From contig CANQPX010000002.1 in NCBI GenBank assembly GCA_947625915.1, positions 40,303 to 104,302 of the forward strand: a stretch of 64,000 nt of DNA, in the 5' to 3' direction. Shown here piece by piece: positions 4,840 to 57,486 of the stretch. The notes beneath the pieces are model-generated. The model saw only the letters and a list, made by a program, of their open reading frames with translations, made no database searches and was not told where the DNA came from. The DNA comes from an uncultured Clostridia bacterium (lineage in GTDB: Bacteria > Bacillota > Clostridia > Oscillospirales > Ruminococcaceae). The translations under genes and the position numbers were made by a program. Position 1 is the stretch's first letter, and each line of letters begins with the position of its first letter.

Positions 4840-5715
4840 ATCTAAGAGCAGAACACATAAAAATCCTGTCAATACCTCAACTCTTAACTCTCAACACTCA
4901 ACACTGCCGAGTGGCAGACAACCATAAGGGAAAGCGTGGGGTGGGTGGGGGACGGTCGGCGGGGTTCTTTAGTTTGCTTTTCTTGATTTTTTATTTTGTA
5001 TATAACCTTTTTTGCCTATTTGTGCGAGGGGCAGACAACCATAAGGGAAGGGGAAACCCGAGCGCCCCTAAGGACGCTCGCCGGGTTTCCCCGTTCCCTT
5101 AGTTTTTCTCCCCTCGCGCTCCCCACTTTCCTTCAACCCTTCCCCTTCCGCGCTCGCTATCCTAAAGTTGAAATTATAGAAGAAATATCAAAGTTCTCTT
5201 GAACATAGATCATTGAGTCAACAGGAACCCTTAGTTTTGTTTATCTTAGTAAGAGAGTTCTACTGTTAGTTTGATATTCAACAATTATAGAGTTCTAAAC
5301 AATAGGATTTCTTTTTTAAAAAATTTCTCCCGTTTAGAACGCTTTTTCTTCTTTAATTTTCATCTAATAGTAGTGCGCTCGTACTAAGATAAGTTAAACC
5401 AAAGAACCCGTAGCCAACGCAATCCCCATTCAAGAGTTCTAAAAAGCTTTTTCTATAATTTCTACTTTAGCATAGCGAGCGCGGAGAGGGATAGGGTTAG
5501 GAAAAGAGGGGCGCGGGGGGAGAAACGCAGGGAAAGGGAGAACCCGGCGAGCGCCTATGGGCGCGTTCGGGTTCGCCCTTTCCTGAAGTGTCATCCCCCC
5601 GAACGATTAGGCAAAAAGGGTTATAAGAAAAGTAAAAGATAAGAACAGAATACAAAAGAACCCCACCCCAAAAGAAAAAATGAAAAGATTTTACTAAGCT
5701 TTTGTTAAAAGCACC
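4840..5715. repeat. large nested imperfect palindrome, copy 1 (non-coding)
   Basis: Dyad symmetry is centred near 5316. An AT-rich core of ~310 bp is bounded by CCGCGCTCGCTAT (5148..5160) and ATAGCGAGCGCGG (5472..5484). GC-rich ~90-nt hairpin arms lie at 5025..5116 and 5515..5600, and the outer flanks also mirror each other. It shares long exact blocks with 24180..25070. Only repeat-derived low-complexity ORFs are present. Confidence 0.85.
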
Positions 5716-7660: not shown

Positions 7661-10333
7661 ATGCTGGAAATTCTGGAAAGACCTTATACTTCAAGCTCAA
7701 AAGGACTTTCCTCGGCTGACGCTGCGGAAAAGCTCATACAATACGGAGAAAATTCTCTTGCAAAGGAAAAGAAAGCAAGACCTCTGAAAATTTTTCTCGG
7801 TCAGTTCCGTGATGTAATGATAATGATACTTCTTGCTGCAACGGTCATATCCTTTTGCCTCGGAGAAGTATACGACGCGGTAACGATCGTAATTATCGTA
7901 CTGCTGAACGCTATACTCGGTTTTATTCAGGAATACCGCACCGAAAAAACTCTTATCGCTCTGCGGAACATGACCGCTCCTTCCGCAAAATGCTGGCGTG
8001 ACGGCGCGCTGACCACCGTTCCCGCAGCGGAACTTGTTCCGGGGGATATCATACGCCTTGAAGCAGGCGACAAAGTTCCCGCCGACTGTATCATCATTTC
8101 CTGCAAAGGACTTCTTGCGGAGGAAAGTATCCTCACAGGCGAATCTGCCGCCGTTCCCAAGACCGAAGGCGACCCTTCCGACACGGACAATTCAATCGGG
8201 AAAGCGGACGCGGTCTACAGCGGAACTGTCATCGTCAAAGGCTCTGCCGAAGCAAAAGTCATCGCTACCGGACTCAATGCGCAAATGGGCAGGATCTCGG
8301 GTATGCTTAACGATATCGATGACGAAATGACCCCTCTCCAGAAACGTCTTGCCGAACTCGGAAAGATAATTGCTCTTATATGTCTCGGAGTCTGCGTCAT
8401 AGTAAGCGGCGCGGGGATACTCCGCGGCGAGCCTGTTTTTGATATGCTCATGACAGGCATCACAATTGCTATAGCAGCGATACCGGAGGGGCTTCCCGCG
8501 ACCGTGACTATCGCACTTGCACTTGCAACGGGAAGAATGCTGAAAAAGAATGCTCTCGTACATAAACTCCATTCTGTGGAAACTTTAGGCTGCGCGTCAG
8601 TTATATGCACCGACAAGACAGGAACTGTAACCGAAAATAAAATGACCGTCACAAACGCTTTTTGCGGCGGAAAGGAATTTTCCTTTTCGGGTAACGGCTA
8701 CCGTATGGCAGGAGAGATAACTCTTGACGGCTCGAGAGTAAATCCCGCTTCCGAACCCGCGTTAAAGGAAATGCTCATCTGCGGGACGCTTTGTACCGGA
8801 TCGTCAATTTCCTCCGACAAAAAAATTACCGTCCGAGACAGAGGAAAACTCGATCTTAAAGGAGAATGGAAAGTTACAGGCGATCCTACCGAACTTGCTA
8901 TCCTCATTGCCGCCGCAAAAGGCGGCATAACTGCGGAAACTCTTTCCGCAGAGCATAAAAAGACCGATGAGATACCCTTTGACAGCAATTCCCGCTGCAT
9001 GACGGTGATATGTTCCGAAAACGGCGGCAGAACGGCTTACACAAAAGGCGCGCCCGATGTTGTGATAAAGCGCTGCGGTTTTTATATGACCGACAGCGGA
9101 GCAGTTCCCATGACCGCAAGAAAGCGGCGGGAAATTTACGATATCCACGAAAAAATGACGGAAAACGCTTTGCGCGTTCTTGCATTTTGCAAAAAAGACG
9201 TTTCGGGGAATTCCGATCCCGAAAGCGGAATGATATTTCTCGGCATAATGGGAATGTCCGATCCTCCCCGAGCCGAAGCAAAACAAGCCGTAAGACTTTG
9301 CCGCAGCGCACATATCCGCACCGTTATGATAACCGGCGATCATAAGAACACCGCTGCCGCCGTTGCCAAGCAGGCGGGGATAATGCGTGAAGGCGATCTT
9401 GTTTTCACAGGTACGGAACTTGACCGTATGTCCGATACGGAACTTGACGGTATCATCGGCAAAACGGCTGTTTTTGCAAGAGTAAGTCCCGCCGACAAGC
9501 TGCGCATAGTCCGTGCTTTCAAGCGCAAAGGCGAGATAGTTACAATGACCGGAGACGGCGTGAACGACGCTCCCGCGGTAAAAGAAGCGAGCATCGGCGT
9601 TGCAATGGGACTTACCGGAACGGACGTCACAAAGCAGGCTGCGGACGTTGTGCTGCTTGACGATAATTTTGCAACGCTTGTAGGCGCAGTCGAACAGGGG
9701 CGCGGCATTTATGCAAACATAAGAAAATTTGTCCGTTATCTTTTAAGCTGCAACATCGGCGAAGTCCTCACAATGTTCCTCGGGATAGTTTTAGGTATGC
9801 CCATGGCTCTGCTGCCGACACAGATACTTCTTGTCAACCTTGTAACGGACGGACTTCCCGCGATCGCTCTGGGGGTCGAACCGCCCGACCGTGAGAACAT
9901 GAAAAAGCCGCCGAGAAGATCCGATGAAAGTTTTTTCTCGGGCGGACTAATGCAGAAAATAATTATCCGCGGTATCCTCATAGGTATCTGCACCTTGGGA
10001 AGTTTTGCGGTCACGGAAATTCTCAGCGGAAGTATTGCCGCGGCACGCACGGCAGCGCTTTTCACCCTTGTGACGTCACAGCTTTTTCATGTTTTCGAGT
10101 GCAAATCCGAGACGAAAAACATTTTTACCGTTCCGTACATGAACAACAAGAAGCTCATCGGAGCGGTGCTGATATCTCTTGCGGCAGTTCTCGGAGCAAT
10201 ATATTTCCCGCCTTTGCAGGTGATATTCGGAACGGTCCCGCTTACGGGAAAGCAGCTTCTCACGGCGTTGGGCATGGCATTTTCCGCACCGCTTTTGCAG
10301 GCGCTTACGCCGACGAAAAGAGAAGAAAATTAA
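7661..10333 (+). CDS. cation-translocating P-type ATPase (Ca2+-ATPase type, YloB/SERCA-like)
   Basis: 890-aa ORF with TGES, the phosphorylation motif CTDKTGTVTENKM, TGDHKNTA, MTGDGVNDAP and about 10 TM segments. Confidence 0.9.
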   Translation: MLEILERPYTSSSKGLSSADAAEKLIQYGENSLAKEKKARPLKIFLGQFRDVMIMILLAATVISFCLGEVYDAVTIVIIVLLNAILGFIQEYRTEKTLIALRNMTAPSAKCWRDGALTTVPAAELVPGDIIRLEAGDKVPADCIIISCKGLLAEESILTGESAAVPKTEGDPSDTDNSIGKADAVYSGTVIVKGSAEAKVIATGLNAQMGRISGMLNDIDDEMTPLQKRLAELGKIIALICLGVCVIVSGAGILRGEPVFDMLMTGITIAIAAIPEGLPATVTIALALATGRMLKKNALVHKLHSVETLGCASVICTDKTGTVTENKMTVTNAFCGGKEFSFSGNGYRMAGEITLDGSRVNPASEPALKEMLICGTLCTGSSISSDKKITVRDRGKLDLKGEWKVTGDPTELAILIAAAKGGITAETLSAEHKKTDEIPFDSNSRCMTVICSENGGRTAYTKGAPDVVIKRCGFYMTDSGAVPMTARKRREIYDIHEKMTENALRVLAFCKKDVSGNSDPESGMIFLGIMGMSDPPRAEAKQAVRLCRSAHIRTVMITGDHKNTAAAVAKQAGIMREGDLVFTGTELDRMSDTELDGIIGKTAVFARVSPADKLRIVRAFKRKGEIVTMTGDGVNDAPAVKEASIGVAMGLTGTDVTKQAADVVLLDDNFATLVGAVEQGRGIYANIRKFVRYLLSCNIGEVLTMFLGIVLGMPMALLPTQILLVNLVTDGLPAIALGVEPPDRENMKKPPRRSDESFFSGGLMQKIIIRGILIGICTLGSFAVTEILSGSIAAARTAALFTLVTSQLFHVFECKSETKNIFTVPYMNNKKLIGAVLISLAAVLGAIYFPPLQVIFGTVPLTGKQLLTALGMAFSAPLLQALTPTKREEN

Positions 10334-10340
10334 CAAGCTG

Positions 10341-10678
10341 ACGAAAAATAAAAACAGGCGCGGACAAACTAAAAAACAAAAAACAAAACTTTGCCCGAAA
10401 AGCCGGTCCGGCGCAGCCGCGCTGGCGGTTTCCAAAGGCAGAGCCTTTGGTCGCCATCCGCAGATGGCGAAATCCCCTAATGCCTTTAGGAGCTCCGCAA
10501 GGGGTGAATTTACGCCGTAGGCGTAAAGAGGGGGCTGCCCTGCGATAGAGGGCGCCCCCTTGGCATTAAAGGCTATTATAATTTATGCCTTGCAAAACAG
10601 CCCGGTGAGCTGTTTTGCAATAAAGAGCAATTGGTTTTTCTAAAAAATAATTCGTTGTTTGACAAAAACTGTATTATT
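10341..10678 (+). repeat. multi-hairpin intergenic element, copy 1
   Basis: Begins AGGCGCGGACAAACTAAAAAAC 8 nt after the ATPase stop. Contains the conserved hairpin series and the block AATCCCCTAATGCCTTTAGGAGCTCCGCA. Ends with the hairpin TTGCAAAACAGC-CCGGTGA-GCTGTTTTGCAA and a T-rich tail. Strand is given for the GGCGCGGAC-first orientation. Confidence 0.85.
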
Positions 10679-10780
10679 TTTATAAATACTTTTTTTGGCA
10701 GTATGTTAAAAGATCCTCTCCCGGAATGTCCGAAAGGGGATCTTGTCATAAAAATTATATTTTGTTCCGCAATTTTTATA

Positions 10781-11795: not shown

Positions 11796-11916
11796 TAGAA
11801 ATTTCTTGATTTTTTATTTTCATAGGAATACTCAAAAACAATGCACATAAAGAGAGGAAAATTATTATTTTTGACGGAACGGCTTTTTGCGGAAAATCTG
11901 AACTCGTCTATAAAGC

Positions 11917-12190
11917 ATAATATAGTTCGTTGTCAAACAACTCACCGGGTTGTTTGACAAGGCTCAAATTATAATAACCGTTAATGCCAAGGGGAACGCT
12001 CTCTCTTGCAGAGCGTTCCCCTCTTTACGCCTGCGGCGTAAATTCACCCCCTGCGGAGCTCCTAAAGGCATTAGGGGCTTTCGCCATCTGCGGATGGCGA
12101 CAAGGGGTTTCACCCCTTGACCCCACCAGCGCGGCTGCGCCGGACCAGCTTTTCAATTTTGCGCTACGCACAAAATTGTTAAAAATAGAA
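11917..12190 (-). repeat. multi-hairpin intergenic element, copy 2 (variant ends)
   Basis: Reverse-complement orientation relative to copy 1. It shares hairpins P3-P8 and the AATCCCC...CCGCA block. The GGCGCGGAC end is replaced by the hairpin CAATTTTG.GCG/CGCAAAATTG, and the terminal hairpin uses the TTGTCAAACAAC arm. Confidence 0.8.
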
Positions 12191-12196
12191 AACCCG

Positions 12197-12943
12197 TTAT
12201 TTTGAATAAGAAAATGTACTGAGGAATTTTTTCGCGCGTTCCGTGTCGGCGTCGTGGAAAAATTTCTGCGGAGGATTTTCTTCTACTATGACTCCTCCGT
12301 CCATAAGTATAACTCTGTCCGCAACGGCTTCCGCAAATGCCATTTCATGCGTAACTATTATCATTGTCGAACCGTTTTTCGCGAGATCAAGCACAACGTT
12401 CAGCACCTCATGCACCATTTCCGGGTCAAGTGCAGCCGTTATCTCGTCCAGAAGCATTATATCCGGGTTCACTACCAGACTGCGGACGATCGCCGCTCTC
12501 TGCTGCTGTCCTCCCGAAAGCTGCGAAGGATAAGACTTTGCCTTATCGCCGAGACCGACTCTTTCCAGAAGTGCCATTGCTTCGGTCTTTACCTCATCTT
12601 TCGGACGTTTCTGCACTTTTAACGGCGCCAGCATAACATTATCAAGCACCGTCATATGCGGGAAAAGTCCGTAATCCTGAAACACCATGCCGATCTTCTG
12701 ACGTATCTTGTTAAGGCTCCTTTTCCCGTACTCCACCGGTTCTCCGTGCAGAAAGACCGAACCGCCCTGTATCGGTTCCAGACCGTTCAGACATCGGAGA
12801 AGCGTTGATTTTCCGCAGCCCGACGGTCCTATCAGAACTACCGTCTCGCCTTTTCTTACGGTCAGATCTATCCCGTTTATTATAACGTTTTCGCCGAAAA
12901 CTTTTTTAAGACCTTTTACTTCAATTACAATATCCTCGTTCAT
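12197..12943 (-). CDS. amino-acid ABC transporter ATP-binding protein
   Basis: 248-aa ORF with Walker A GPSGCGKST, signature LSGGQQQR and Walker B MLLDE. GlnQ/ArtP-like. Confidence 0.9.
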   Translation of the reverse strand: MNEDIVIEVKGLKKVFGENVIINGIDLTVRKGETVVLIGPSGCGKSTLLRCLNGLEPIQGGSVFLHGEPVEYGKRSLNKIRQKIGMVFQDYGLFPHMTVLDNVMLAPLKVQKRPKDEVKTEAMALLERVGLGDKAKSYPSQLSGGQQQRAAIVRSLVVNPDIMLLDEITAALDPEMVHEVLNVVLDLAKNGSTMIIVTHEMAFAEAVADRVILMDGGVIVEENPPQKFFHDADTERAKKFLSTFSYSK

Positions 12944-17732: not shown

Positions 17733-17754
17733 TCGACCAAATGCCTTTCCTTTC

Positions 17755-24179: not shown

Positions 24180-25070
24180 GTGGAGGTAGGCTGAGCCTGC
24201 CGACAGTGTGGAGAGTTGAGATACTGACGGGGTTTTGAGGTGTTCTGTTCTTATATTTAGTTTTGTGAAAATTTCTTAGTTTTATGTTTCGGGGGACAGA
24301 ACCTTCCGGGAAGGGCGACCCCGAGAAATTAACAGGGACGCTCGCACGGGTTCTCCCTTCCCCTGCGGTTCTGTCCCCCGAGCCCCCTACTCCCCAACCC
24401 TATCCCTCTCCACGCTTGCTACCGAAAAGGTTGATATTATAGAAAAATTTTCTTCGTACTCTATAACATATATTATTGAGTCAATAGGAACCGTCAGTTT
24501 GGTTTATCTTGGTACGAGAGTTCTACTGTTAGTTTGATATTCAACAATTATAGAGTTCTACACGGGAAAGGACTCCACAAAAAGAAAATCTATTGTTTAG
24601 AACGCTTATTCTTCTTTAATTTTCATCTAATAGTAGTGCGCTCGTACTAAGATAAGCAAAACCAAAGAACCCGTAGCCATCGCTTTCCACGTTCAAGAGT
24701 TCTAAAAAACCTTTTCTATATTTTCAACTTTGAGCATAGCGAGCGCGGAAGGGGTTAGGTTGAAGGAAAGTGGGGAGCGCGAGGGGAGAAAAACTAAGGG
24801 AAGGGGAAAACCGTGCGAGCGCCCATAGGGGCGGTCGGGTTTCCCCGTCCCTTATGGTTGTCTTCCCCTCGCACGTTTTGGCAAAATAAAAATTTTACTA
24901 TAGCTTTTTAAGAAAAGCAATCTCCGCCCCTTTTACATTTGCCCCGAAAACACAAAAAGAGGTCATAAGCAAAATAAAGAATAAGAAAAGCAAACTAAAG
25001 AACCCGCAAAAGTTTTACACCGAAAGAAAAACTAAAAAGATTTTTACTAAGCTTTTGTTAAAAAGCAATT
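24180..25070. repeat. large nested imperfect palindrome, copy 2 (non-coding)
   Basis: Dyad symmetry is centred near 24579. The core is bounded by CCACGCTTGCTAC (24410..24422) and ATAGCGAGCGCGG (24736..24748). Hairpin arms lie at 24291..24379 and 24780..24871. It has exact 45-nt and 48-nt direct matches to the copy 1 core and an exact 43-nt inverted match to the copy 1 left arm. Confidence 0.85.
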
Positions 25071-31318: not shown

Positions 31319-32932
31319 TCAGCGGTTAAGGATCTCACGAATCGTATCTCCATCTATTTCAATCTTGCCGTTCGGACCCGCTGTAACAACATACGGCTCT
31401 ACGGATCCGCCGTTCCCGCCGCCCTGACTGCTGCTGCCGCCGCTGCCGCCGGAACTTCCGCCGTTCTGTCCCATGCTGTCTGCACCGCCTGCGCTGTTTC
31501 CGCCGCCGTTGTTCCCGCCTGCGTCTCCGCCGCCATTTCCGCCGTTTCCTGACGAGCCGCCGGAATTGTTTCCGCCAACGCTGTTTCCGCTGCCGCTGCC
31601 GCCGCCATTTCCGCCGCCCTGACTGCTGCTGCCGCCGTTGCCGCCGGAACTTCCGCCGTCCTGACCTTCGCTGTCCCAATTTTCATCGTCCCAACCTTCA
31701 TCGTCCCAACCTTCGTCATCCCAATTTTCGTAGTCCCATTCGTCCTCGTCCCAATCTTCGCCGTCGTCGGGATATCCGTTATTAAAACTGTCTGCAATAT
31801 CAAGGCTGTATACTTCTTCGGGTCTGTTTATTCTTGAAGCATACGGGACAACTCCGTTATAGTTGCCTATCAGGAGCATGAAGTAAAATCCCGCGCAGTA
31901 AAGCGAAAGTGCAGACATTGCTGCGATCCCGTATTTTTTCCCGAGAGCGCGGTCCTTCTTGAAAAACTTATCTTCAAAAAATTCTTTTACCGCTTGTACA
32001 ACGTCGGGAGCCATGAAAATTATCGGCGCTATACAAACTATTATCGCAAATCTTGAAAGCACCGCATGGCGCATACCTGTCGCTTCAAACACGACCATGT
32101 ACATCGCGCAGTTTATATAGACCTTATTCTTCGGGTTTATCTCCATCAGCCGTTCCCTGAAGATGAAGCACAGCGCGAACGCCAGCCCGAACATTATCGT
32201 GAACTTCGGAGACAGCCCTACGATCACTTCTCTGTTTGTAGAGATGTCATACACATTATACATATAGAAGGTATCCGCCGCCCACGTTATGAATGTCCTT
32301 GAGAAAATGCAGAATATGACCGTCAGACCTGCAATAACGCCGAGGTATATATAACCGGGCTTTATCTGTAAAAGCCAGAACAGCGGTATCATTATCAGAG
32401 CCGACCAGTGGAAAAGCGACGCGGCAAGTATCATTACGAAAAATCTTGCGGAAAACTTTCTGTCCGCATATTTCAGCGCATATGTTACTATAAGCGCGGC
32501 AATGACCTGCCTTATGAAACACAGCGAATTAAAGAACAGACCCATGCAGAGGTATGCGGTAACGCTTATCCACGGGCATGAGGAATTCTTATATATCAGG
32601 AAAAACACAGCCGAATATATTATCAGCGATGTATAGATGAATACTGTATAATAACTTTCAAATTCGATCCCCAGCACATACAGCGGCATAAGGAAACCTT
32701 TTTCCATTTTAAGCTGCGATATCTCGTCCGGGTACATGAACGCGATGTTGTAATATGTACCGCCGTAGAGGCTGAAATCATAACCGACCTGATATCTTAC
32801 CGCGGATATGAACATAAAGACCGCAGCCGCAGCGCAGCAGTAGATAAGCCTGCCCGACCTTCCGCACTTTTCGCTGCAAAGCGGTATACCCACAAGGACG
32901 GTACCTATAAGTAAAAAGATATAAACTCCCAT
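31319..32932 (-). CDS. EpsG-family polysaccharide polymerase-like membrane protein with a long low-complexity tail
   Basis: 537-aa ORF. The N-terminal ~390 aa are polytopic with the EpsG-like RYQVGYDFSLY motif. The C-terminal ~150 aa are acidic Trp repeats plus G/S/N repeats. Confidence 0.65.
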   Translation of the reverse strand: MGVYIFLLIGTVLVGIPLCSEKCGRSGRLIYCCAAAAVFMFISAVRYQVGYDFSLYGGTYYNIAFMYPDEISQLKMEKGFLMPLYVLGIEFESYYTVFIYTSLIIYSAVFFLIYKNSSCPWISVTAYLCMGLFFNSLCFIRQVIAALIVTYALKYADRKFSARFFVMILAASLFHWSALIMIPLFWLLQIKPGYIYLGVIAGLTVIFCIFSRTFITWAADTFYMYNVYDISTNREVIVGLSPKFTIMFGLAFALCFIFRERLMEINPKNKVYINCAMYMVVFEATGMRHAVLSRFAIIVCIAPIIFMAPDVVQAVKEFFEDKFFKKDRALGKKYGIAAMSALSLYCAGFYFMLLIGNYNGVVPYASRINRPEEVYSLDIADSFNNGYPDDGEDWDEDEWDYENWDDEGWDDEGWDDENWDSEGQDGGSSGGNGGSSSQGGGNGGGSGSGNSVGGNNSGGSSGNGGNGGGDAGGNNGGGNSAGGADSMGQNGGSSGGSGGSSSQGGGNGGSVEPYVVTAGPNGKIEIDGDTIREILNR

Positions 32933-41878: not shown

Positions 41879-42203
41879 ATAATATAGTTGTTTGACATCG
41901 AACTATTTTTGAACAAATTGCTCTTTATTGCAAAACAGCTCACCGGGCTGTTTTGCAAGGCTTAAATGGTCTTAGCCGTTAATGCCAAGGGGAACGCTCT
42001 CTCTTGCAGAGCGTTCCCCTCTTGCCGCCCAAAGGGCGGCAATTCACCCCTTTGCAGAGGCGCCTTCGTAAAGGGGATTTCGCGCTCTGCGGAGCGCGAC
42101 GAGGGCTTCGCCCCTCGACCCCACCAGCGCGGCTGCGCTGGACCAGCTTTTCGGGCAAGGTTTTGTTTTTCGTTTTTTAGTTTGTCCGCGCCTGTTTTTT
42201 AAC
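41879..42203 (-). repeat. multi-hairpin intergenic element, copy 3
   Basis: Reverse-complement orientation. The GGCGCGGAC end (42185..42203 region) faces the stop of the minus-strand EAL gene. The full hairpin series is present. Confidence 0.85.
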
Positions 42204-42210
42204 AAAATAG

Positions 42211-42247
42211 ATCGGCTCCTCTGACGAGAAGCCGATAACTTTTTTTT
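42211..42247. terminator. hairpin terminator between the EAL gene and repeat copy 3
   Basis: ATCGGCT-loop-AGCCGAT, flanked by an A-run upstream and TTTTTTTT downstream. Confidence 0.5.
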
Positions 42248-44183
42248 AAACAGCAGTTTCCGATGCTTTGTACATGAAGTCTATGAACTCATCTTCCGGA
42301 ATAGGTTTCGAGAAATAATAACCTTGGATATATTCACAGTTAAGATCCGAAAATTTCTTAACAAGATTTTCCGTCTCAATGCCTTCCACAACTATATGCA
42401 TATCCATGTCTTTTAGCATTTTTATAGTGTTCCGCAAAACTATCCACATTCTCGGATTGTCTTCCTCATCGACAAAAGACTTATCCAGTTTAACTATTTT
42501 AAGCGGCAGCGAAGCAACGCTCTTTATATTGGAATAACCCGTTCCGTAATCGTCCAGCGAAAAACTTATGCCCGCCCTTGTAAGCTTTTCAATGTTCGCG
42601 GTCATAACGTTCTGCGCGTAATTTGCAGCTGTCTCGGTTATTTCGAGATTTATCTTATCCGCCGAGACTCCGAAACGTTTCATTGTGCTGAGCACTTTAT
42701 CCGCCAGATCTGACTGCATACACTGTGCAACGGAAAGGTTTATTTCGATATAGTCGAGCCCGAGTTTCTTGAAATCGGGGCCCGAAATGAACCTGCATAC
42801 TTCTTCCAGAACATAATCGCCTATCTTGTGTATCGCGCCGCTCCTTTCCGCTGCAACGATGAACAGATCCGGCGGAATGAAGCCGTGCTTTTCATCTTTG
42901 AGTCTGAGAAGTGCTTCCGCCGAAAGAAAACGCTTTTCTTCAACGGAATATATAGGCTGATAATATACTTCAAACTTTTTGTTCGCCAGAGCGGAATCTA
43001 TTATCATATCCAGTTCGTTTGTAAGCTGGAAACGGTTCTTTTTGGCGATCTCGGAAGTCTGCATAACTCTTCCTGAATAAGGATTTAAAATGTGGAAATC
43101 ATTTCCGAATGTCATGAGCGATTTGAAATCGTGTATATCCTCAGGGCATCTTGCAACGCACACATAAGCAATAAGGTTCAGTTCCATGCCGTTTATGACC
43201 ATGCTTGTTTTCAGCCGCTGATTTATTTTTTCCGCAGCGTCCTCGATCTTGCCGCGGTTCTTTTCGTTTACGACGAAGCGGAACCTTCCTCTGTCGAGGT
43301 AATAGATATCCGCGCCTGCCTTTATCTCTTTGTTTATGTCGTTGAGTTCGCCTGCGATCTTTACGAGGATAGCGTTGCTTGCGTCATAGCCGACTATGCC
43401 GAAAAGCGTTGTATAGTTTGCGATATTAAGCAGTATGACGCTTACTTTTTTCTCGTTATAGAAATTCCGTTTCATATCGTCCGTGTAAGCGGAATATTTT
43501 CTAAGGCTCGTCAGTGAATCGATGGTCTCCTCAGGTTTTTGTATGGTTATGGTAATGAGCAGGACGCATATCGCGTTGAAAAACATTTCAATTACGATCT
43601 CTTTGTTGAGCATCTGTATTATCACCGCAAAAAGCTGTATCGGGACAATAAGCAGCAAAGCGATGAACTTTCCCCGTGAGAAAAGTTTTCTGTGTATTAT
43701 GACGTAGATAAGTCCCGCAGCCATGAACGCGCCTGCAAGCAGGTACAATATGAAGAACAGTTTACCTCTGGTATACTTGTTGTTTTCATCGAAATAGAAC
43801 ATGAGGTTCGTTACGGGATTTAGTGCAAGCAGTATTATAAGCGCGGAATAAGGTACTATCGCACTCAGTTTGAACAGCAGACTGTGGCTCATCTTGTGCC
43901 ATCTGTCCGTAAGTGAGATAAGGTACAGCAGGAAACAGAACGAGGTAAGGTTATGGAACAGCAGATATCCCGTCTGGGAGATATATCTTGCCTGTATGCT
44001 CGCATTCGGGTCGGCATCGCATACCAGACCCCACAGGTCAAAAGCGGTGGAAACAAATGTCACTATAGCAACGAGCATAAGGAATTTGCCCTGACTGCCG
44101 CTTGTCATTTTACGGGATATTATAGAAAACAAAAGAAAGACCAGCAATATAAGCGCGCATACATCAAAAGAGATCATTCGCAT
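42246..44183 (-). CDS. membrane-anchored EAL-domain c-di-GMP phosphodiesterase with a degenerate GGDEF domain
   Basis: 645-aa ORF with about 6-7 N-terminal TM segments. The GGDEF-like region has DRGRFRF in place of GGDEF. The C-terminal EAL domain carries EALLR, EITE, DDYGTGYS and EGIE. Confidence 0.8.
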   Translation of the reverse strand: MRMISFDVCALILLVFLLFSIISRKMTSGSQGKFLMLVAIVTFVSTAFDLWGLVCDADPNASIQARYISQTGYLLFHNLTSFCFLLYLISLTDRWHKMSHSLLFKLSAIVPYSALIILLALNPVTNLMFYFDENNKYTRGKLFFILYLLAGAFMAAGLIYVIIHRKLFSRGKFIALLLIVPIQLFAVIIQMLNKEIVIEMFFNAICVLLITITIQKPEETIDSLTSLRKYSAYTDDMKRNFYNEKKVSVILLNIANYTTLFGIVGYDASNAILVKIAGELNDINKEIKAGADIYYLDRGRFRFVVNEKNRGKIEDAAEKINQRLKTSMVINGMELNLIAYVCVARCPEDIHDFKSLMTFGNDFHILNPYSGRVMQTSEIAKKNRFQLTNELDMIIDSALANKKFEVYYQPIYSVEEKRFLSAEALLRLKDEKHGFIPPDLFIVAAERSGAIHKIGDYVLEEVCRFISGPDFKKLGLDYIEINLSVAQCMQSDLADKVLSTMKRFGVSADKINLEITETAANYAQNVMTANIEKLTRAGISFSLDDYGTGYSNIKSVASLPLKIVKLDKSFVDEEDNPRMWIVLRNTIKMLKDMDMHIVVEGIETENLVKKFSDLNCEYIQGYYFSKPIPEDEFIDFMYKASETAV

Positions 44184-46903: not shown

Positions 46904-47611
46904 ATGATGAATTCGGACTTTCCAAGAATTATAACTTTGTTGAGGAAAGAACGCGGCATCAGTCAGAAAAACGCAGCTTCCGCACTTGGCATTTCCCAAG
47001 CGCTGCTGTCCCATTACGAAAAAGGTATAAGAGAATGCGGATTGGAGTTCCTTGTAAAAACAGCGGATTACTATAACGTGTCCTGCGACTATCTTCTGGG
47101 AAGATCCCCCGAACCCGCGGGAAAGACCATATCCTATGAGGATATCCCCGAACAGGATCTTAACGGAAAAGAAAAAATATCCGCAGGCGGCGTAATGGCT
47201 TCTTTCAACAAAAAACTCGTTGTCAATGCGGCGGCGGTGCTGTTCTCGCTCGCACAAAAGACGGGAAGTTCCACCGTTCTGAAAGAAGTATCTTCGTATC
47301 TGATGCTTGCGATATACAAAATGTTCCGCGTTGTTTATTCCGCAAATCCAAAGAACGATCAGCGGTTTTTCACCGTTCCGGAAGTTACCGCGCAGGGCAG
47401 TTCCTCTGCGGCTATGGCGATATGTGAAGCAAACGCGTATGCCGCGTCAAAGGGCATATCCGTAAACGGAGGAGACACTGCAAAAGAGACCGATGAAAGT
47501 CTTATAACGGCAAATTCGCTTTCGGAAGAATATCCCGGTTCGGCATCATCGCTGTTGAATGTTATAAAGAACAGTGAAGCGCGTATGCATATACTTAACG
47601 GTGAAAAGTGA
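46904..47611 (+). CDS. XRE-family helix-turn-helix transcriptional regulator
   Basis: 235-aa ORF with an N-terminal HTH_3 pattern (LRKERGISQKNAASALGISQALLSHYEKG). The C-terminal ~160 aa belong to no family I recognise. Confidence 0.75.
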   Translation: MMNSDFPRIITLLRKERGISQKNAASALGISQALLSHYEKGIRECGLEFLVKTADYYNVSCDYLLGRSPEPAGKTISYEDIPEQDLNGKEKISAGGVMASFNKKLVVNAAAVLFSLAQKTGSSTVLKEVSSYLMLAIYKMFRVVYSANPKNDQRFFTVPEVTAQGSSSAAMAICEANAYAASKGISVNGGDTAKETDESLITANSLSEEYPGSASSLLNVIKNSEARMHILNGEK

Positions 47612-47700
47612 AATATAAAAGCCGATATAGATAATTGTAGCACAATTCCGTCAAGAATTCAATAGACATAAAGTAAAACTTAAAATATATTTTAACAAAA

Positions 47701-47729
47701 ACAATACCTTCCCGAGCGGAAGGTATTGT
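47701..47729 (-). terminator. hairpin with a T-run on the minus strand only
   Basis: ACAATACCTTCC-CGAGC-GGAAGGTATTGT. The minus strand continues TTTTGTT, while the plus strand continues CAGCTTATAAAAAA. Confidence 0.4.
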
Positions 47730-47739
47730 CAGCTTATAA

Positions 47740-48030
47740 AAAAGCCTTAAAGCAGGCGCGGACAAACTAAAAAACGAAAAACAAAACCTTGCCCGAAAAG
47801 CTGGTCCAGCGCAGCCGCGCTGGTGGGGTCGAGGGGCGAAGCCCTCGTCGCCGTCCGCAGACGGCGAAATCCCCTAATGCCTTTAGGAGCTCCGCAGGGG
47901 GTGAATTGCTGTCGCAGACAGCAAGAGGGGGAAGCCCTGCGATAGAGGGCTTCCCCCTTGGCATTAACGGCTTTTTCAAATTTTGTCTTGTCAAACAACC
48001 CGGTGAGTTGTTTGACAACAAAATATTTTT
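47740..48030 (+). repeat. multi-hairpin intergenic element, copy 4
   Basis: GGCGCGGACAAACTAAAAAACG starts at 47755. The hairpin series is conserved. The terminal hairpin uses the TTGTCAAACAAC/GTTGTTTGACAA arms, and the distal T-rich tail module is absent. Confidence 0.85.
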
Positions 48031-48073
48031 GGAAACCTCAGCCTTGAAAGACCGACAAAATTTCAAGTAAACT

Positions 48074-48772
48074 ATGAAAGGAGTTACTTGCTTTTTCAAG
48101 CATTTGCAGAGTATGAAAAGATATATTGTAAAATATTCAGGGAACGGAAAAAATTTCTCCGCTGCGGATAAGGAAAACGGTCTCGCCGTACTCGATGCGG
48201 AAACAGCCGACGGATATGAGGTGATCGCCGATGTGACGGGGAACCCTTTCTACAGCGACGAAAGTATAAGGAGCCGCAAAGGACATATACTGAACCTTGA
48301 AATAGAACGGAAATGGTTAGTAAAGATCCCCGAAAATATCGGCGAGCTTCCTTTTAAGACTATAGAACAGGACTACCTCGCTCCCGAAAGCGGCTTCCGC
48401 GGACGGATAAGAAAATTAGACGATAAATTCATCTACACAGAAAAAGCCCCCACCGCCGACCCGAAAGTCCGTGTCGAGAACGAAAAGTTCATTTCCCGCG
48501 AAGAATATCTTTCCCTTAAAGAAAAAACCGTTGGAAATACTATCAAAAAACGGCGGTACCTTATCCCTTACGGCGGGCTGACTTTTGAACTGGACGTCTT
48601 TGAAAATAATGCGGATAAAGACTATGCTCTTATGGAAGCGGAACTTGAACATAAAAACGACAAAGCGGAACTTCCGCCCTTTGTAGAAGTTATACAAGAA
48701 GTAACTGATGATATGTATTATACAAATAGGAATTTATCCGACATGAAAATAATTCGGCTTTTGAAAAAATAA
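48074..48772 (+). CDS. CYTH-domain (triphosphate tunnel metalloenzyme) protein
   Basis: The C-terminal ~150 aa start with the CYTH signature LEIERKWLV. The N-terminal ~70 aa are unassigned. The start could also be the Met at 48113. Confidence 0.6.
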   Translation: MKGVTCFFKHLQSMKRYIVKYSGNGKNFSAADKENGLAVLDAETADGYEVIADVTGNPFYSDESIRSRKGHILNLEIERKWLVKIPENIGELPFKTIEQDYLAPESGFRGRIRKLDDKFIYTEKAPTADPKVRVENEKFISREEYLSLKEKTVGNTIKKRRYLIPYGGLTFELDVFENNADKDYALMEAELEHKNDKAELPPFVEVIQEVTDDMYYTNRNLSDMKIIRLLKK

Positions 48773-53448: not shown

Positions 53449-53478
53449 CAAAAGCCCCCGAACGGGGGCTTTTGGTTT
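53449..53478. terminator. rho-independent terminator after glyQS
   Basis: AAAAGCCCCCG-AA-CGGGGGCTTTTGG. The same 23-mer recurs at 53902..53924. Confidence 0.7.
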
Positions 53479-53480
53479 GT

Positions 53481-53886
53481 TGAAAAACTGAAAAATAGGC
53501 GCGGACAAACTAAAAAACGAAAAACAAAACCTTGCCCGAAAAGCTGGTCCAGCGCAGCCGCGCTGGTGGGGTCTAAGGGAAAAACGAATGCTTCGCATTC
53601 GTCTAAACCCCTTGTCGTCGAAACGAACGCAGTTCGTTTTTCGCAGTACGACGAAATTCCCCTAATGCCTTTAGGAGCTCCGCAGGGGGTGAATTTGCGC
53701 CGCAGGCGTAAAGAGGGGGAAGCCTCTGCAAAAACCAAAACTTCGTTTGGTTGAGGGCTTCCCCCTTGGCATTAACGGTTATTATAATTTATGCCTTGCA
53801 AAACAGCCCGGTGAGCTGTTTTGCAATAAAGAGCAATTTGTTTTTCTAAAAAATGATCTGTTGTTTGACAACAAATTATATTATGC
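53481..53886 (+). repeat. multi-hairpin intergenic element, copy 5 (expanded)
   Basis: Full-length copy with two of the hairpin modules enlarged by nested hairpins (53570..53650). Flanked by an identical 23-bp direct repeat. Confidence 0.85.
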
Positions 53887-54104
53887 TTTATCGATAAGCT
53901 GAAGCCCCCGAACGGGGGCTTTTGATTTTCGACCGAAAAATGTTGAAAACTTGTGGAAAACGTTGAATTTATCCCTCATTTGCCGTAAAACCGCACTTCC
54001 GCTTTCAACATTTTTAACGAAATTTTCCACCCGCGATCGCTTTTCATGATTTCGTTTTAATTTCAACTTATTTTCACATAATTTACACAAAAAACAGTTA
54101 TCAT

Positions 54105-54310
54105 GTAAATGTACTCAAACAAAGAGTACGTTATCCCCCATAATGTGCTTTTATATTGCAGATCATCACCCCTGGATCTGCGCGGTGAAAACCATATAAA
54201 AGACCCCTATCCATAAGCTGTTTACCCCTACGGTTTATGGAAACCCCCAATAATCCTATATCATAATCTTCGGCTCTGCCTTACCCCAAGACAGAGCCAC
54301 TTTCTTTTTT
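54105..54310 (+). ncRNA. candidate C-rich small RNA (six CCCC motifs, intrinsic terminator)
   Basis: Hairpins lie at 54111..54129, 54158..54181 and 54211..54240. The terminator is GGCTCTG (54272..54278)/CAGAGCC (54292..54298) plus a T-run. CCCC(C) runs occur at 54135, 54169, 54204, 54225, 54244 and 54284, mostly in loops or linkers. A separate consensus promoter for the downstream gene follows the terminator. The 5' end is not defined. Confidence 0.4.
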
Positions 54311-54326
54311 ATCAACTTTCCCGTGA

Positions 54327-54355: not shown

Positions 54356-54388
54356 CATAAAAACGGCTTTTTGAAAGGATCATGCGTT

Positions 54389-57133
54389 ATGGCAAAGATA
54401 ATTCTCGATTGGAACAAATACCTCAATACCGCCCGCAAAGCTGCCGCGGAAGGAATAGTTATGCTCGAAAATAACGGCGTTCTACCGCTCGATAAAAATT
54501 CCGTAACGGCTGTTTTCGGACGTATACAAAGCAATTATTATAAGAGCGGTACAGGCTCGGGAGGATTGGTAAACGTCTCTAAAGTGTGGAACTTGACCGA
54601 AGGCTTGAAGGAAAACGGCGCAAAACTCAATGCGGAACTCGAAAACGCTTATTCCGAATGGGAAAAGGAACACCCTTTCAGTCACGGTCTCGGTTGGGGA
54701 GAAGAACCTTGGTCGCAGGAGGAAATGCCCCTTGACGAAACCTTCGTTAAACATATTGCAGAAAATTCCGATACGGCTCTTGTAATTATCGGACGAACCG
54801 CAGGCGAAGAACTGGACAGCAAAAACGAACCCGGTTCATATCTGCTTACGGAACTTGAATATGATATGCTGAAAAAAGTCCGCAGAAATTTCACGAAAAT
54901 GACGGTCGTCCTCAATGTGGGCGGTATCATTGATATGAAATTCGTTCACGATATAAGACCCGACGCGGTGCTTTATGTTTGGCAGGGCGGAATGATCGGC
55001 GGTCTTGCGGCGGCGGACGTTTTGTTGGGAAAAACAAGCCCCGGCGGAAAACTTGCGGACACTATCGCAGAAAATATTTCCGACTATCCGTCTCATCCGT
55101 ACTTCGGCGACAGAGAGAGAAACTTTTACTCTGAGGATATTTATGTCGGATATCGTTATTTTGAAACTTTTGCACAGGACAAAGTGTTATATCCCTTCGG
55201 CTTCGGACTTTCTTACACCGATTTTGAGGTAAAAACACTTTCCGCTTCTCACGATAAAGAAAATGTGCGGCTTGAAATTTCCGTGAAAAATATCGGCAAA
55301 TGTGCGGGAAAAGAAGTTATACAGATATACTGCGGCGCAGCCCAAGGCAAACTCGGCAAGCCTGCAAAAGTCCTCTGCAATTTTGCAAAAACCAATGAAC
55401 TTGCCCCCGACAAAGAGCAAAAACTTTCTTTTGTGGTACCTCTTGCTTCCCTTGCGTCTTACGATGATTCGGGAGCATCGGGATATGCAAATTGCTACGT
55501 TCTCGAAGCGGGAGAATATAAAATTTTTGCGGGAACGGACGTAAGATCCGCAGAATGTGTCTACAGCTTCAACATCTCCGAAAATATCGTTACAGAAAAG
55601 CTTTCCGAAGCATATGCTCCCGTTATTGAGTTTGAAAGAATGAAAAACAGCGGCGGGAAAGTTATCATGGAAAACGTTCCTACCGCCAAGACCGATATGT
55701 ATGCCCGCCGCAAAGAAAACCTTCCCGCCGAGATACCGCAGACAGACGACAAGGGCATAAAGCTTTCGGACGTTATGAACGGGAAAAATCCCATGGACGA
55801 ATTTATCGCCCAGCTTACCGATGACGATCTTTCCTGCATTATCCGCGGCGAAGGTATGGGAAGCCCTAAAGTCACCGCAGGAACTGCCGCCGCTTTCGGC
55901 GGAGTCTCGGAACATCTCGCAGCACTCGGGATCCCCTGCGGCTGCTGTGACGACGGTCCTTCGGGAATGAGACTTGACTGCGGAACAAAAGCTTTCAGCC
56001 TGCCTATAGGAACGCTTATCGCCTGCACGTTCAACACCGAACTTATCACAGAACTTTTCTCCTTTACGGGAATTGAAATGGCTGCAAATAAAGTTGACTG
56101 CCTTCTCGGTCCGGGAATGAACATTCACCGCCACCCGCTGAACGGAAGGAATTTTGAATATTTCAGCGAAGATCCTTTCTTAACGGGAACCATGGCTGCG
56201 GCTGAACTGAAAGGTATGCGCTCCGCAGGCGTTACCGGAACTATAAAGCATTTCTGCGGAAACAATCAGGAGACCCTCCGCCGAACCGTTGATAATGTTA
56301 TATCCCAAAGAGCTCTGCGGGAAATTTACCTTAAAGGTTTTGAAATCGCAATAAAAGACGGCGGAGCAGTTACCGTTATGACTACTTACGGTCCTGTAAA
56401 CGGTATTTGGACGGCAAGCAGCTACGACCTTAATACAACTATCCTGCGCGGCGAATGGGTATTTGACGGCTTTGTAATGACCGACTGGTGGTCAACGATG
56501 AACGAACGCGACAAGCCCGCTTCGCCAAACGATTTTGCATCAATGGCAAGAGCGCAGAACGATGTCTATATGGTCTGCGCGGACAGCTCGAAAAATACTC
56601 ACGGCGACAATACCCTTGCTTCGCTTGAAGCGGGAACGCTCACAAGAGGAGAACTTCAGAGAAATGCAAAAAACATATGCAAAATGCTTATGGGAACTCT
56701 TGCTATGAAACGTCTCCTCGGAACTGCCGATGAAATAGAGATCATAAACCGTCCTAATGACGGAGAAAATTTTGACGCGTCAAATGTGGAATTCCACAAG
56801 CTTGACGGAAGTCTTACCCTTCCTCTTGCCGGAATAAACACCGAAAAGGGTTCAAGCTATGTTTTCGCGCTTGACATAGTTCGCACGGGAAAATTCAGAG
56901 CCACCATAACCGCAAAGTCCGACAGCGGCGAAGTAGCGCAAATGCCTGTTACGCTTTTTGTACTCGGAACGCCTACAGGAGTTTACACATTCAACGGAAC
57001 GAACGGCGAATGGGTATCTATAGATCGTGAGATAATAGCATTCTCGCGGTTCACGGCTTGCAGGTTATATTTTGGACAAAGCGGGCTTACGCTGAAAGAC
57101 ATACGCTTTGAAATAACGGAAGAATTCAAATAA
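54389..57133 (+). CDS. glycoside hydrolase family 3 (beta-glucosidase/beta-xylosidase-like)
   Basis: GH3 pattern including the KHFCGNNQE and VMTDWW (nucleophile Asp) regions, a fibronectin-like domain and a C-terminal extra domain. ATG 54389 follows AAAGGA. The TTG at 54371 in the track is less likely. Confidence 0.9.
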   Translation: MAKIILDWNKYLNTARKAAAEGIVMLENNGVLPLDKNSVTAVFGRIQSNYYKSGTGSGGLVNVSKVWNLTEGLKENGAKLNAELENAYSEWEKEHPFSHGLGWGEEPWSQEEMPLDETFVKHIAENSDTALVIIGRTAGEELDSKNEPGSYLLTELEYDMLKKVRRNFTKMTVVLNVGGIIDMKFVHDIRPDAVLYVWQGGMIGGLAAADVLLGKTSPGGKLADTIAENISDYPSHPYFGDRERNFYSEDIYVGYRYFETFAQDKVLYPFGFGLSYTDFEVKTLSASHDKENVRLEISVKNIGKCAGKEVIQIYCGAAQGKLGKPAKVLCNFAKTNELAPDKEQKLSFVVPLASLASYDDSGASGYANCYVLEAGEYKIFAGTDVRSAECVYSFNISENIVTEKLSEAYAPVIEFERMKNSGGKVIMENVPTAKTDMYARRKENLPAEIPQTDDKGIKLSDVMNGKNPMDEFIAQLTDDDLSCIIRGEGMGSPKVTAGTAAAFGGVSEHLAALGIPCGCCDDGPSGMRLDCGTKAFSLPIGTLIACTFNTELITELFSFTGIEMAANKVDCLLGPGMNIHRHPLNGRNFEYFSEDPFLTGTMAAAELKGMRSAGVTGTIKHFCGNNQETLRRTVDNVISQRALREIYLKGFEIAIKDGGAVTVMTTYGPVNGIWTASSYDLNTTILRGEWVFDGFVMTDWWSTMNERDKPASPNDFASMARAQNDVYMVCADSSKNTHGDNTLASLEAGTLTRGELQRNAKNICKMLMGTLAMKRLLGTADEIEIINRPNDGENFDASNVEFHKLDGSLTLPLAGINTEKGSSYVFALDIVRTGKFRATITAKSDSGEVAQMPVTLFVLGTPTGVYTFNGTNGEWVSIDREIIAFSRFTACRLYFGQSGLTLKDIRFEITEEFK

Positions 57134-57142
57134 TAAAGAATG

Positions 57143-57486
57143 TCGAAAAACTAAAAATAGGCGCGGACAAACTAAATAGCGAAAAACAAAACTTCGCCCG
57201 AAAAGCTGATCCAGCGCAGCCGCGCTGGTGGGGTCAAGGGGTGAAACCCCTTGTCGTTGTCCGCAGACAACGAAATCCCCTTTACGAAGGCGCCTCTGCA
57301 AAGGAGTGAATTGCCGCCCCTTTGGGCGGCAAGAGGGGAACGCTCTGCAAGAGAGAGCGTTCCCCTTGGCATCAACGGTTATTATAATTTAAACCTTGCC
57401 AAACAGCCCGGTGAGCTGTTTGGCAATATAGAGCAATTTGTTTTTCTAAAAATTGATCCGTTATTTGTCAACGAACTATACTATTA
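57143..57486 (+). repeat. multi-hairpin intergenic element, copy 6
   Basis: Starts 10 nt after the GH3 stop with GAAAAACTAAAAATAGGCGCGGACAAAC. The full hairpin series and the terminal TTGCCAAACAGC-CCGGTGA-GCTGTTTGGCAA hairpin are present. Confidence 0.85.

Follow-up and report, generated by a model that had tools for sequence, protein, structure and literature searches.

Small structured repeats are a known class of bacterial element that includes bcr1, BOX, ERIC and REP/BIME. ERIC is one imperfect palindrome of 127 nt. Ornate multicopy RNAs of ~200–300 nt are also found on mobile elements, as in the HEARO/IscB omega-RNAs and TnpB re-RNAs, which show strong covariation and sometimes occur without a protein. 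In the Bacillus cereus group, the bcr1/bcr repeats (Okstad 2004, Klevan 2007, Kristoffersen 2011) are non-coding, 155–310 nt long and Firmicute-specific (summarized in PMC3184786). bcr1 is transcribed with its neighbors, non-syntenic between close relatives, folded into a predicted RNA structure kept by compensatory changes and of unknown function (PMC3184786). In Streptococcus pneumoniae, the BOX repeats (also RUP and SPRITE) are intergenic, vary in length and consist of highly base-paired modules; they are enriched downstream of coding sequences, and neighboring mRNAs include them (PMC3049150). REP/BIME lie between stop codon and terminator, are biased toward convergent gaps and have documented effects on mRNA stability (PMC3184786). 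Group IIC introns, which are mobile structured RNAs, home in sense orientation to positions immediately 3′ of the stem-loop of an intrinsic terminator (PMC1702495).

Here we describe a structured intergenic element from a 64,000-nt stretch of DNA of an uncultured gut Clostridia bacterium (the window, meaning the whole stretch analyzed). It is best read as an undescribed family within this known class of small structured repeats, and one mechanistically odd trait, the duplication of terminator hairpins, sets it apart. Like bcr1, the element is interspersed, non-coding and non-syntenic and has a compensated fold, while its co-transcription is only inferred; there is no sequence similarity, and size, architecture, flanks and host all differ, so that the resemblance is one of behavior only. 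The bcr1 unit is a ~155-nt two-arm cruciform with a fixed 5-bp direct repeat (TTTAT target) (PMC3184786), whereas the element has six helices, a closing helix, a 29-nt near-invariant block and usually no flanking repeat, with a hairpin duplication of 23–35 nt in 3/12 copies. As in BOX, modules are gained, lost and shuffled. BOX, however, combines boxA and boxC with repeated boxB units, and its terminal inverted repeats pair together (PMC3049150); the element sets hairpin modules in a fixed scaffold, its ends are not inverted repeats, and its polarity to the terminator is fixed. With proteobacterial REP/BIME and ERIC the element shares its position between stop codon and terminator, its bias toward convergent gaps and GC-rich hairpins in the 3′ UTR. 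REP units are single palindromes of ~35 nt (unit 20–40 nt) with a GTAG/CGTC tag and a link to the RAYT transposase (PMC3733652), in contrast to a ~300-nt unit of six different hairpins in which no GTAG/CGTC-tagged unit is found. Multi-helix junction architecture is present in the element and in neither REP nor ERIC.

Copies and their placement

An earlier note on this DNA had reported six homologous non-coding copies in the window. All six are present at or within a few bases of the positions given there, and profile (nhmmer) and repeat searches agree. A profile made from the copies recovers each of them with E-values of 1e-81 to 1e-99, and repeat families, both direct and inverted, connect all six regions over 80–190 nt at 70–97% identity. 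We refer to these copies as c1–c6. The element is ~300–430 bases long, and window copies diverge by 10–30% from one another. As also claimed previously, no reading frame is common to the copies on either strand, and a protein-coding element was rejected on this basis.

The full-length c1 (10337..10690, + strand; profile match 10343–10667) begins 4 nt past the stop of a P-type ATPase gene (7661–10333) and is followed by a bidirectional terminator and then a convergent SBP gene. Copy c2 (11883..12168, − strand) is 5′-truncated, begins at GAAAAGCTGG and lies downstream of an ABC-ATPase gene (12197–12943, − strand). Downstream of an EAL-domain gene (42246–44183, − strand) lies c3 (41884..42208, − strand), which carries a variant middle block and has one hairpin before it and a bidirectional terminator after it. 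Copy c4 (47738..48031, + strand) is 3′-truncated just past the terminal hairpin and falls between an HTH gene (46904–47611) and a gene at 48074–48772. The longest copy, c5 (53475..53901, + strand; profile match 53480–53878), is inserted between two copies of the terminator hairpin of the GlyRS gene; it had been placed at 53481..53886, and the flanking duplication moves the limits of the inserted DNA to 53475–53901. Finally, c6 (57142..57479, + strand) begins 9 nt past the stop of a GH3 gene (54371–57133); a terminator and the convergent ftsZ gene come after it.

By its flanking proteins the window falls in Oscillospiraceae, near Huintestinicola, and the nearest relatives are rabbit-gut MAGs. 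In an exact-pattern scan of one genome per GTDB species, only MAG Lapin-023_bin87 was positive, with six copies (L001–L006); this MAG and the window are ~84% identical in syntenic coding DNA. A partial copy closes contig L030 of GCA_947628405.1, and contig L015 likewise stops inside the element. The total is 13 copies, of which the window has six and two related MAGs from rabbit gut have the other seven. The earlier note took six copies in 64 kb to imply a very abundant genome-wide family; copies are few in the related genomes, and counts from MAGs are underestimates because contigs break inside the element. A scan of JGI metagenomes gave seven high-GC chance matches to the pattern alone and no real copy. 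IMG/VR, the PLSDB plasmids and GenBank phages contained no match to the element, no diverged relatives came up when 277 kb (window plus related loci) were searched with a covariance model of the 5′ domain, and a six-frame concatenated peptide query for spurious ORFs returned no further copies. The antisense ORF of c4, searched against representative genomes, yielded one 66-aa ORF with a c2-type junction.

The element had been described as fitting no known RNA family, and Rfam searches bear this out. Against Rfam 15 the whole window gave 0 matches at the gathering score, and relaxed searches (c5, c4, c1+c2 and the L001 copy) gave scattered chance matches, mostly to flanking terminators, with no family recurring. 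A type III hammerhead matched the junction of hairpins H5 and H7 (see below) in L001 at 15.5 bits (gathering score 48.5) and was rejected because the CUGANGA/GAAA core is absent; the junction strand between H5 and H7 is a single G. Nor did a cognate transposase appear that would remove the novelty: among ~50 window ORFs we found no transposase, RT, integrase, TnpB or IscB domain.

Copies are placed in a consistent way with respect to transcription units. The genes upstream of the window copies are unrelated (P-type ATPase, ABC ATPase, EAL protein, HTH regulator, GlyRS and GH3 glycosidase). All copies start at most ~130 nt past a same-strand stop codon, six of them within ~15 nt, and a terminator hairpin lies directly 3′ of the element in at least 10/12 copies. 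The element occupies 3/4 convergent, 3/42 tandem and 0/4 divergent gaps of the window (Fisher P = 0.004), and all four tandem-gap copies point the same way as the genes. Co-orientation is automatic in a convergent gap, so the real signal is the fixed order of stop codon, element 5′ to 3′, and terminator. Since + and − copies lie only 1.5 kb apart, polarity tracks transcription units and not one replication direction. This position suggests transcription of the sense strand within the mRNA of the upstream gene, as its 3′ UTR. For c5, a consensus scan found no sigma-70-type promoter site in or before the element, and the terminator is that of the host gene.

A hairpin stands 5–25 nt upstream of the start in 5/13 copies, and seven copies have no upstream hairpin. 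In the five copies that have it, this hairpin might stop transcription before the element. Their position resembles that of group IIC introns, which, unlike the element, do not duplicate the hairpin on insertion. A group IIC intron or intron fragment was rejected as an identity for the element, which is far too small, has no domain V/VI, matches no Rfam intron model and starts with TTGAAAAAC rather than GUGYG.

A compensated multi-helix fold

The anatomy of the element rests on an alignment of 12 copies folded with RNAalifold. Where about eight hairpins had been counted, the alignment gives six well-supported core hairpins and a closing helix, to which at most four optional hairpins are added by insertion. 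Coordinates below are those of c5 (+ strand).

The unit opens with an A-rich leader of the general form TTGAAAAACTAAAAATAGGCGCGGACAAACTAAA, and full-length copies begin TTGAAAAAC. In c5 the leader reads TTGAAAAACTGAAAAATAGGCGCGGACAAACTAAAAAAC (53480..53518) and is conserved and predicted to be unpaired; its GCGGA could pair with UCCGC of the middle block, a predicted contact without covariation support. After the leader stands the closing helix GAAAAACA/TGTTTTTC, which shuts a domain of ~250 nt and is formed in c5 by the 5′ strand GAAAAACAAA (53519..53528) and the 3′ strand TTTGTTTTTC (53837..53846). The earlier note had seen here an inverted repeat at the ends that could be a TIR or a closing helix. 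The repeat is real but subterminal: in c5 it is set back from the 5′ end by ~45 nt and from the 3′ end by ~55 nt, and hence is no terminal TIR. Copies c2, c3 and c4 lack it or have it in degenerate form. It behaves as a closing helix would, and L003 shows one variant that is compensated (TAAAAAACA/TGTTTTTTA). We rejected a classical MITE, as the only inverted repeat is subterminal and is missing in c2 and c4, and there is no fixed short target duplication.

Within the closed domain, a 29-nt near-invariant block (53538..53566) includes hairpin H3 (53549–53566 in c5, CCAGCGC-AGCC-GCGCTGG). In this block 26/29 positions are identical in 12 copies, and its sequence GAAAAGCNGNTCCNGCGCAGCCGCGCTGG has 6 matches in the window vs. 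0.00 expected in shuffles. The block is a candidate recognition site. A GGGG/CCCC helix then surrounds H5 and H7, giving a three-way junction. The stem of H5 (53573..53614) covaries, with variants CAAGGGG/CCCCTTG, CGAGGG/CCCTCG and CCAAAGG/CCTTTGG among copies, and has a tip hairpin inserted in c5. H7 (53615..53654) has a conserved loop, UCCGCAG, and five perfectly complementary stem variants between copies; in c5 it contains the mini-hairpin insert AAACGAACGCAGTTCGTTT, a 19-nt sequence that is identical in c5, L002 and L006 and found nowhere else. The middle block AATTCCCCTAATGCCTTTAGGAGCTCCGCAGGGGGTGAAT (53655..53694) follows, with a second variant in c3 and c6 and a third in the MAG copies.

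The 3′ part of the element comprises three further hairpins and a tail. H9 (TTTGCGCC-GCA-GGCGTAAA, 53694..53712) has four covarying pairs. H10 (GAGGGGGAAGCCTC...GAGGGCTTCCCCCTT, 53713..53767) has three compensated variants and, in c5, an inserted tip hairpin; a linker separates it from the 12-bp terminal hairpin H11 (53796..53826), which has five covarying pairs and the loop CCGGTGA. The 3′ tail (53847..53901) contains a small hairpin, GTTGT-TTG-ACAAC, and terminates ...AAGCTG, the 3′ end sequence of the element being ...GACAGACTG. The tail hairpin of c5 is a remnant of an H11 3′ arm of the c2/c4 type; c3 has it in flipped form. The alignments contain all the conserved blocks and stem variants quoted earlier (TCGCCATC/GATGGCGA, CCAAAGG/CCTTTGG and others, and the loop CCGGTGA), as well as the nested hairpins said to expand the fifth copy, of which c5 has three. 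The extra small hairpins are of four kinds, each at a helix tip, loop or junction, and stems are never interrupted. Mini-hairpin inserts as independent repeats were rejected, since they are present only inside the element.

Pairing is maintained while stems change. Across 67 predicted pairs in 12 copies, 97.9% of cells are standard pairs, compared with 45–54% when partners are slid by 1–3 columns. The covariation score is 0.252 vs. 0.05–0.07 in slid controls, and the observed pairing and covariation values were reached by 0/500 shuffles. These results agree with the earlier observation that stems change on both sides with pairing kept, as 19/67 pairs are doubly changed vs. 0–4 in the controls. 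The copies hold at least 15 distinct, perfectly complementary stem variants over five helices. Conservation is 0.89 in paired and 0.82 in unpaired columns, although several unpaired runs are invariant.

The strand on which the fold acts is less evident from energies. Consensus energy is −94.7 kcal/mol for sense vs. −95.6 for antisense, and the folding z-score of c5 is −6.0 for sense vs. −9.5 for antisense. Both strands fold equally well, so energy cannot tell an RNA from a single-stranded DNA fold. The ratio of G-U to A-C cells is 41:5, a value inflated by one-strand prediction bias and in part by the register of the H10 bulge, and too biased to assign the strand.

Equal folding of both strands also favors a decaying, functionless DNA repeat, in which palindromes would stay perfect through events at the DNA level, namely the exchange of whole modules and the correction of one arm by the other in hairpins or cruciforms, rather than through selection on the fold. 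Copies do swap whole hairpin modules, and many "compensatory" cells therefore trace to single exchanges. Loop flips likewise indicate cruciform-type DNA events, and C-GNA-G triloops, as typically seen in stable DNA mini-hairpins, make up many of the loops. On the other hand, such a repeat does not readily account for so many perfectly complementary stem variants, for stems free of insertions, for the higher conservation of paired columns or for the imperfect features that are kept among copies (the H10 bulge, 7-nt loops and unpaired invariant blocks). We regard decay without function as scarcely probable.

Invariant loops and junctions, compensated stems and tip-only insertions are equally expected of a host-functional structured RNA module, for which mobility would be merely the route of spread. 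Such a module could be a cis-acting 3′-UTR stabilizer or processing signal, or one abundant RNA cut from many mRNAs, with a protein bound via the 29-nt block and the conserved loops. Conserved unpaired blocks lie beside freely covarying stems, all four kinds of extra hairpin leave the stems unbroken, every copy lies within a transcription unit upstream of a terminator, and the 26 invariant positions of the 29-nt block are shared by genomes only ~84% identical. Conversely, folding is equally good for the antisense strand, the flips of a loop (TTC/GAA in the H5 insert) and of the c3 tail hairpin are palindrome events at the DNA level, c5 has no promoter-like site, and the flanking genes are functionally unrelated. 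Together with the mobility evidence below, this leaves a host function unlikely.

Insertion, mosaicism and duplicated terminators

In syntenic comparisons, relatives lack individual copies of the window. The gap between the ABC-ATPase and SBP genes is alignable in the related loci L026, L030 and L033, and the element (c2) is there only in the window. The SecDF–GlyRS block is syntenic in L016, L020 and L023 (~84% nucleotide identity), where c4 and c5 are missing. At the c4 locus, relatives carry an adenylosuccinate lyase gene at that junction. Regions downstream of GlyRS cannot be aligned in relatives, where another repeat or a Wadjet island is found, and c5 thus has no clean empty site. Since the family is missing in sister species and at syntenic loci, the element cannot be essential, and both this absence and the persistence of truncated copies (c2, c4 and L030) count against a host function.

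Copies are also mosaic. Grouping copies block by block gives {c1,c2,c5} and {c3,c6} for the middle block, {c2,c3,c6} for H10 and {c2,c4} for H11. Different blocks group the copies differently, indicating that modules are exchanged between copies. The 3′ third of the element is species-specific, with 57% identity between genomes vs. 83–93% within.

Around three copies, a whole local terminator hairpin is duplicated. The left copy of the GlyRS terminator hairpin, AAGCCCCCGAACGGGGGCTTTTG (53452..53474, + strand), and the right copy (53902..53924, + strand) form a 23-nt exact repeat around c5, compared with a longest shuffle match of 10; a T-run follows the right copy, which looks like a functional terminator. 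The repeat is 29 nt and exact at L004 and ~35 nt at L003, where 31/34 nt match and the loop differs. The length of the duplication follows hairpin size, and there are a few variable filler bases at the 5′ junction. The remaining 9/12 copies have flanking repeats at chance level only. Starting points at the 5′ end vary, from full length through losses of 10 nt and of 55 nt (c2) to the still shorter L030, and 3′ ends are ragged, with c4 cut short.

Target-primed synthesis would account for hairpin duplication, as would nicking of both strands at the stem-loop foot. One possibility is that the element homes to intrinsic terminators by a mechanism undescribed in bacteria, using either a structure-specific nicking enzyme or target-primed copying of 3′ UTRs. 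In the nicking variant, the enzyme would cut both strands at the 3′ foot of the stem-loop. By either route, the whole terminator hairpin (23–35 nt, as set by hairpin size) would be duplicated, polarity would be fixed to transcription, and 5′-truncated, mosaic copies would be left behind; the machinery would recognize the element by its six-helix fold and 29-nt block. We consider dedicated homing of this kind rather improbable.

The element could also be an RNA-mediated, SINE-like target-primed element, with a reverse transcriptase supplied in trans that copies the 3′-UTR transcript at nicks beside terminator hairpins. To our knowledge, nothing of the sort is established in bacteria. Flanking duplications of varied length (23, 29 and ~35 nt), one hairpin each, would fit such a route, as would differing 5′ starts that include truncations, variable filler nucleotides at the 5′ junction, polarity set by transcription and not by a single replication direction, and mosaic copies that look like template switching. 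A precedent exists in group IIC introns, retroelements that home to terminator stem-loops (PMC1702495). However, there is no RT gene in the window, 3′ ends are ragged too (c4 is 3′-truncated), 9/12 copies show no duplication, there is no A-tail or other priming signature, and group II intron models found no match. RNA-mediated spread is accordingly very doubtful.

Non-autonomous derivatives of IS200/IS605-type transposons are common in Clostridia, and the orientation of this family goes with replication direction. The element could be such a derivative (a PATE) or come from a similar single-strand transposon, its fold being the omega- or re-RNA scaffold for a TnpB/IscB-like nuclease encoded elsewhere. 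It is multicopy and lineage-specific, lacks a TIR and usually a target duplication, has a covarying multi-hairpin scaffold, and both the left flank and the right end finish in yTG/CTG, which fits peel-and-paste ends. Such a derivative would be expected to have subterminal hairpins at both ends and a conserved 4–5-nt target at the left flank. Nevertheless, the common flank motif is only 2–3 nt long, and the ~40 nt next to each end hold no subterminal hairpin. Both orientations occur among the copies of the 64 kb, and the 23–35-nt duplications at three insertions are not what peel-and-paste produces. The window contains no tnpA, tnpB or iscB gene, no IscB or TnpB ORF adjoins any of the 13 copies, and the Rfam models for HEARO and the IS605-orfB motifs gave no match. 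An identity as HEARO/IscB omega-RNA was rejected, given no match to RF02033 or the IS605-orfB motifs and neighbors that are housekeeping genes; end anatomy and orientation pattern also differ between the element and HEARO/TnpB-type elements. A single-strand transposon origin is, on balance, very unlikely.

A proposed mobile repeat of 3′ UTRs

The explanation that we favor, with somewhat more confidence than doubt, is an undescribed family of structured repeats, restricted to an uncultured rabbit-gut Oscillospiraceae lineage, that are non-autonomous, have probably been mobile in recent times and settle in 3′ UTRs. The element would be moved in trans, now or until recently, by an enzyme encoded elsewhere in the genome, which may recognize the folded single strand and the invariant block. 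Integration would occur adjoining terminator hairpins, and nicks on either side of the hairpin at some integrations would duplicate the entire hairpin. By landing upstream of the terminator, the element would become transcribed as the 3′ UTR of the upstream gene, where a compact, nuclease-resistant fold may be tolerated or mildly useful. We propose that this tolerance or usefulness would explain both where copies survive and why pairing is kept.

Some observations fit this explanation less well. Among the window ORFs we found no mobilizing enzyme or autonomous parent. The element is also not a classical MITE, because it lacks a terminal inverted repeat and a fixed-length duplication, and 9/12 copies have no detectable duplication. 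Finally, the 10–30% divergence of the window copies is old for a burst, unless the sources lie elsewhere or recombination scrambles the copies.

If the favored explanation is true, a well-defined family from uncultured gut Clostridia joins the few bacterial interspersed repeats with a demonstrably maintained fold, among which the element is unusually large and architecturally complex. In practice, the element flags assembly break points and rearrangement junctions in these MAGs, and it provides naturally occurring 3′ UTRs, some with a bulky structured insert and some lacking it, for the study of mRNA decay in Firmicutes. The importance of the family would be higher if a dedicated enzyme or an RNA-templated route is involved, and lower if it is mobilized by a plain IS with matching ends. 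In addition, the three insertions that duplicate terminators give a handle on how repeats find the ends of transcription units.

Sequences behind the GlyRS gene and other repeats

In relatives whose GlyRS is 98% identical, a JetABCD (Wadjet) defence island lies directly 3′ of the GlyRS gene (L020, 11405–17806; also related-genome loci L021, L022 and L023), while behind GlyRS the window has instead the element copy c5 (53475–53901, +), a candidate sRNA and a GH3 gene. The non-coding stretch at 54040–54315 (+) shares 85% identity with positions 17735–18046 of L016 from a related MAG, where the gene neighbourhood differs from that of the window. Six CCCC/CCCCC motifs occur within the stretch, which is closed by a strong terminator (TTCGGCTCTGCC...GACAGAGCC followed by a T-run), and an Rfam search of it returned zero matches, even at E ≤ 1. 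Possibly this is the gene of a C-rich sRNA similar in style to RsaE/RoxS.

A second repeat family, unrelated to the element, spans about 600–700 nt and has long inverted arms that are G-rich and C-rich (GGGGAAACC.../...GGTTTCCCC). Copies occur in the window at 5010–5600 and 24347–24886 and, in the related MAG, downstream of GlyRS (L016, 11470–12080); by appearance the family looks like a long-TIR MITE. Imperfect GC-rich tandem repeats (CCGCCG.../GGCGG...) at 31401–31675 (−) fall within the 3′ part of an EpsG-family ORF (31319–32932) and probably encode its low-complexity, Gly/Ser-rich tail.

Junctions and insertions at element sites

Comparison of window positions 47591–48113 with L020 4137–6028 placed the element copy c4 exactly at the position that an adenylosuccinate lyase gene occupies in relatives, between an HTH gene and a gene for a 219-aa protein. 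In MAG bin87, by contrast, the HTH block is inverted and relocated downstream of GlyRS. Because c4 takes the place of the lyase gene and the HTH block has moved in bin87, the c4 site is the junction of a deletion or rearrangement, marked by the element. The ABC-ATPase/SBP site that holds copy c2 in the window is occupied in a third genome by an unrelated inserted sequence, about 95 nt long (L033, 1440–1540), with a hairpin of its own (GCCTGCTACGCAGGC). The site, a short spacer that follows the stop codon, is a recurrent hot spot for insertions.

Inversions and contig breaks within the element

Small palindromes within the element have flipped loops and the same stems. The c5 palindrome at 53586–53600 reads AATGC-TTC-GCATT, compared with AATGC-GAA-GCATT in L002 (a bin87 copy), and the tail hairpin GTTGT-TTG-ACAAC is inverted in copy c3 (41886–41911, versus 53859–53884). 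These flips are cruciform-type inversions at the DNA level. Two independent metagenome contigs stop inside the element (the ends of L015, 1509–1582, and L030, 15283–15361). The element is a break point for assemblers, and its copy numbers in MAGs are therefore underestimates.
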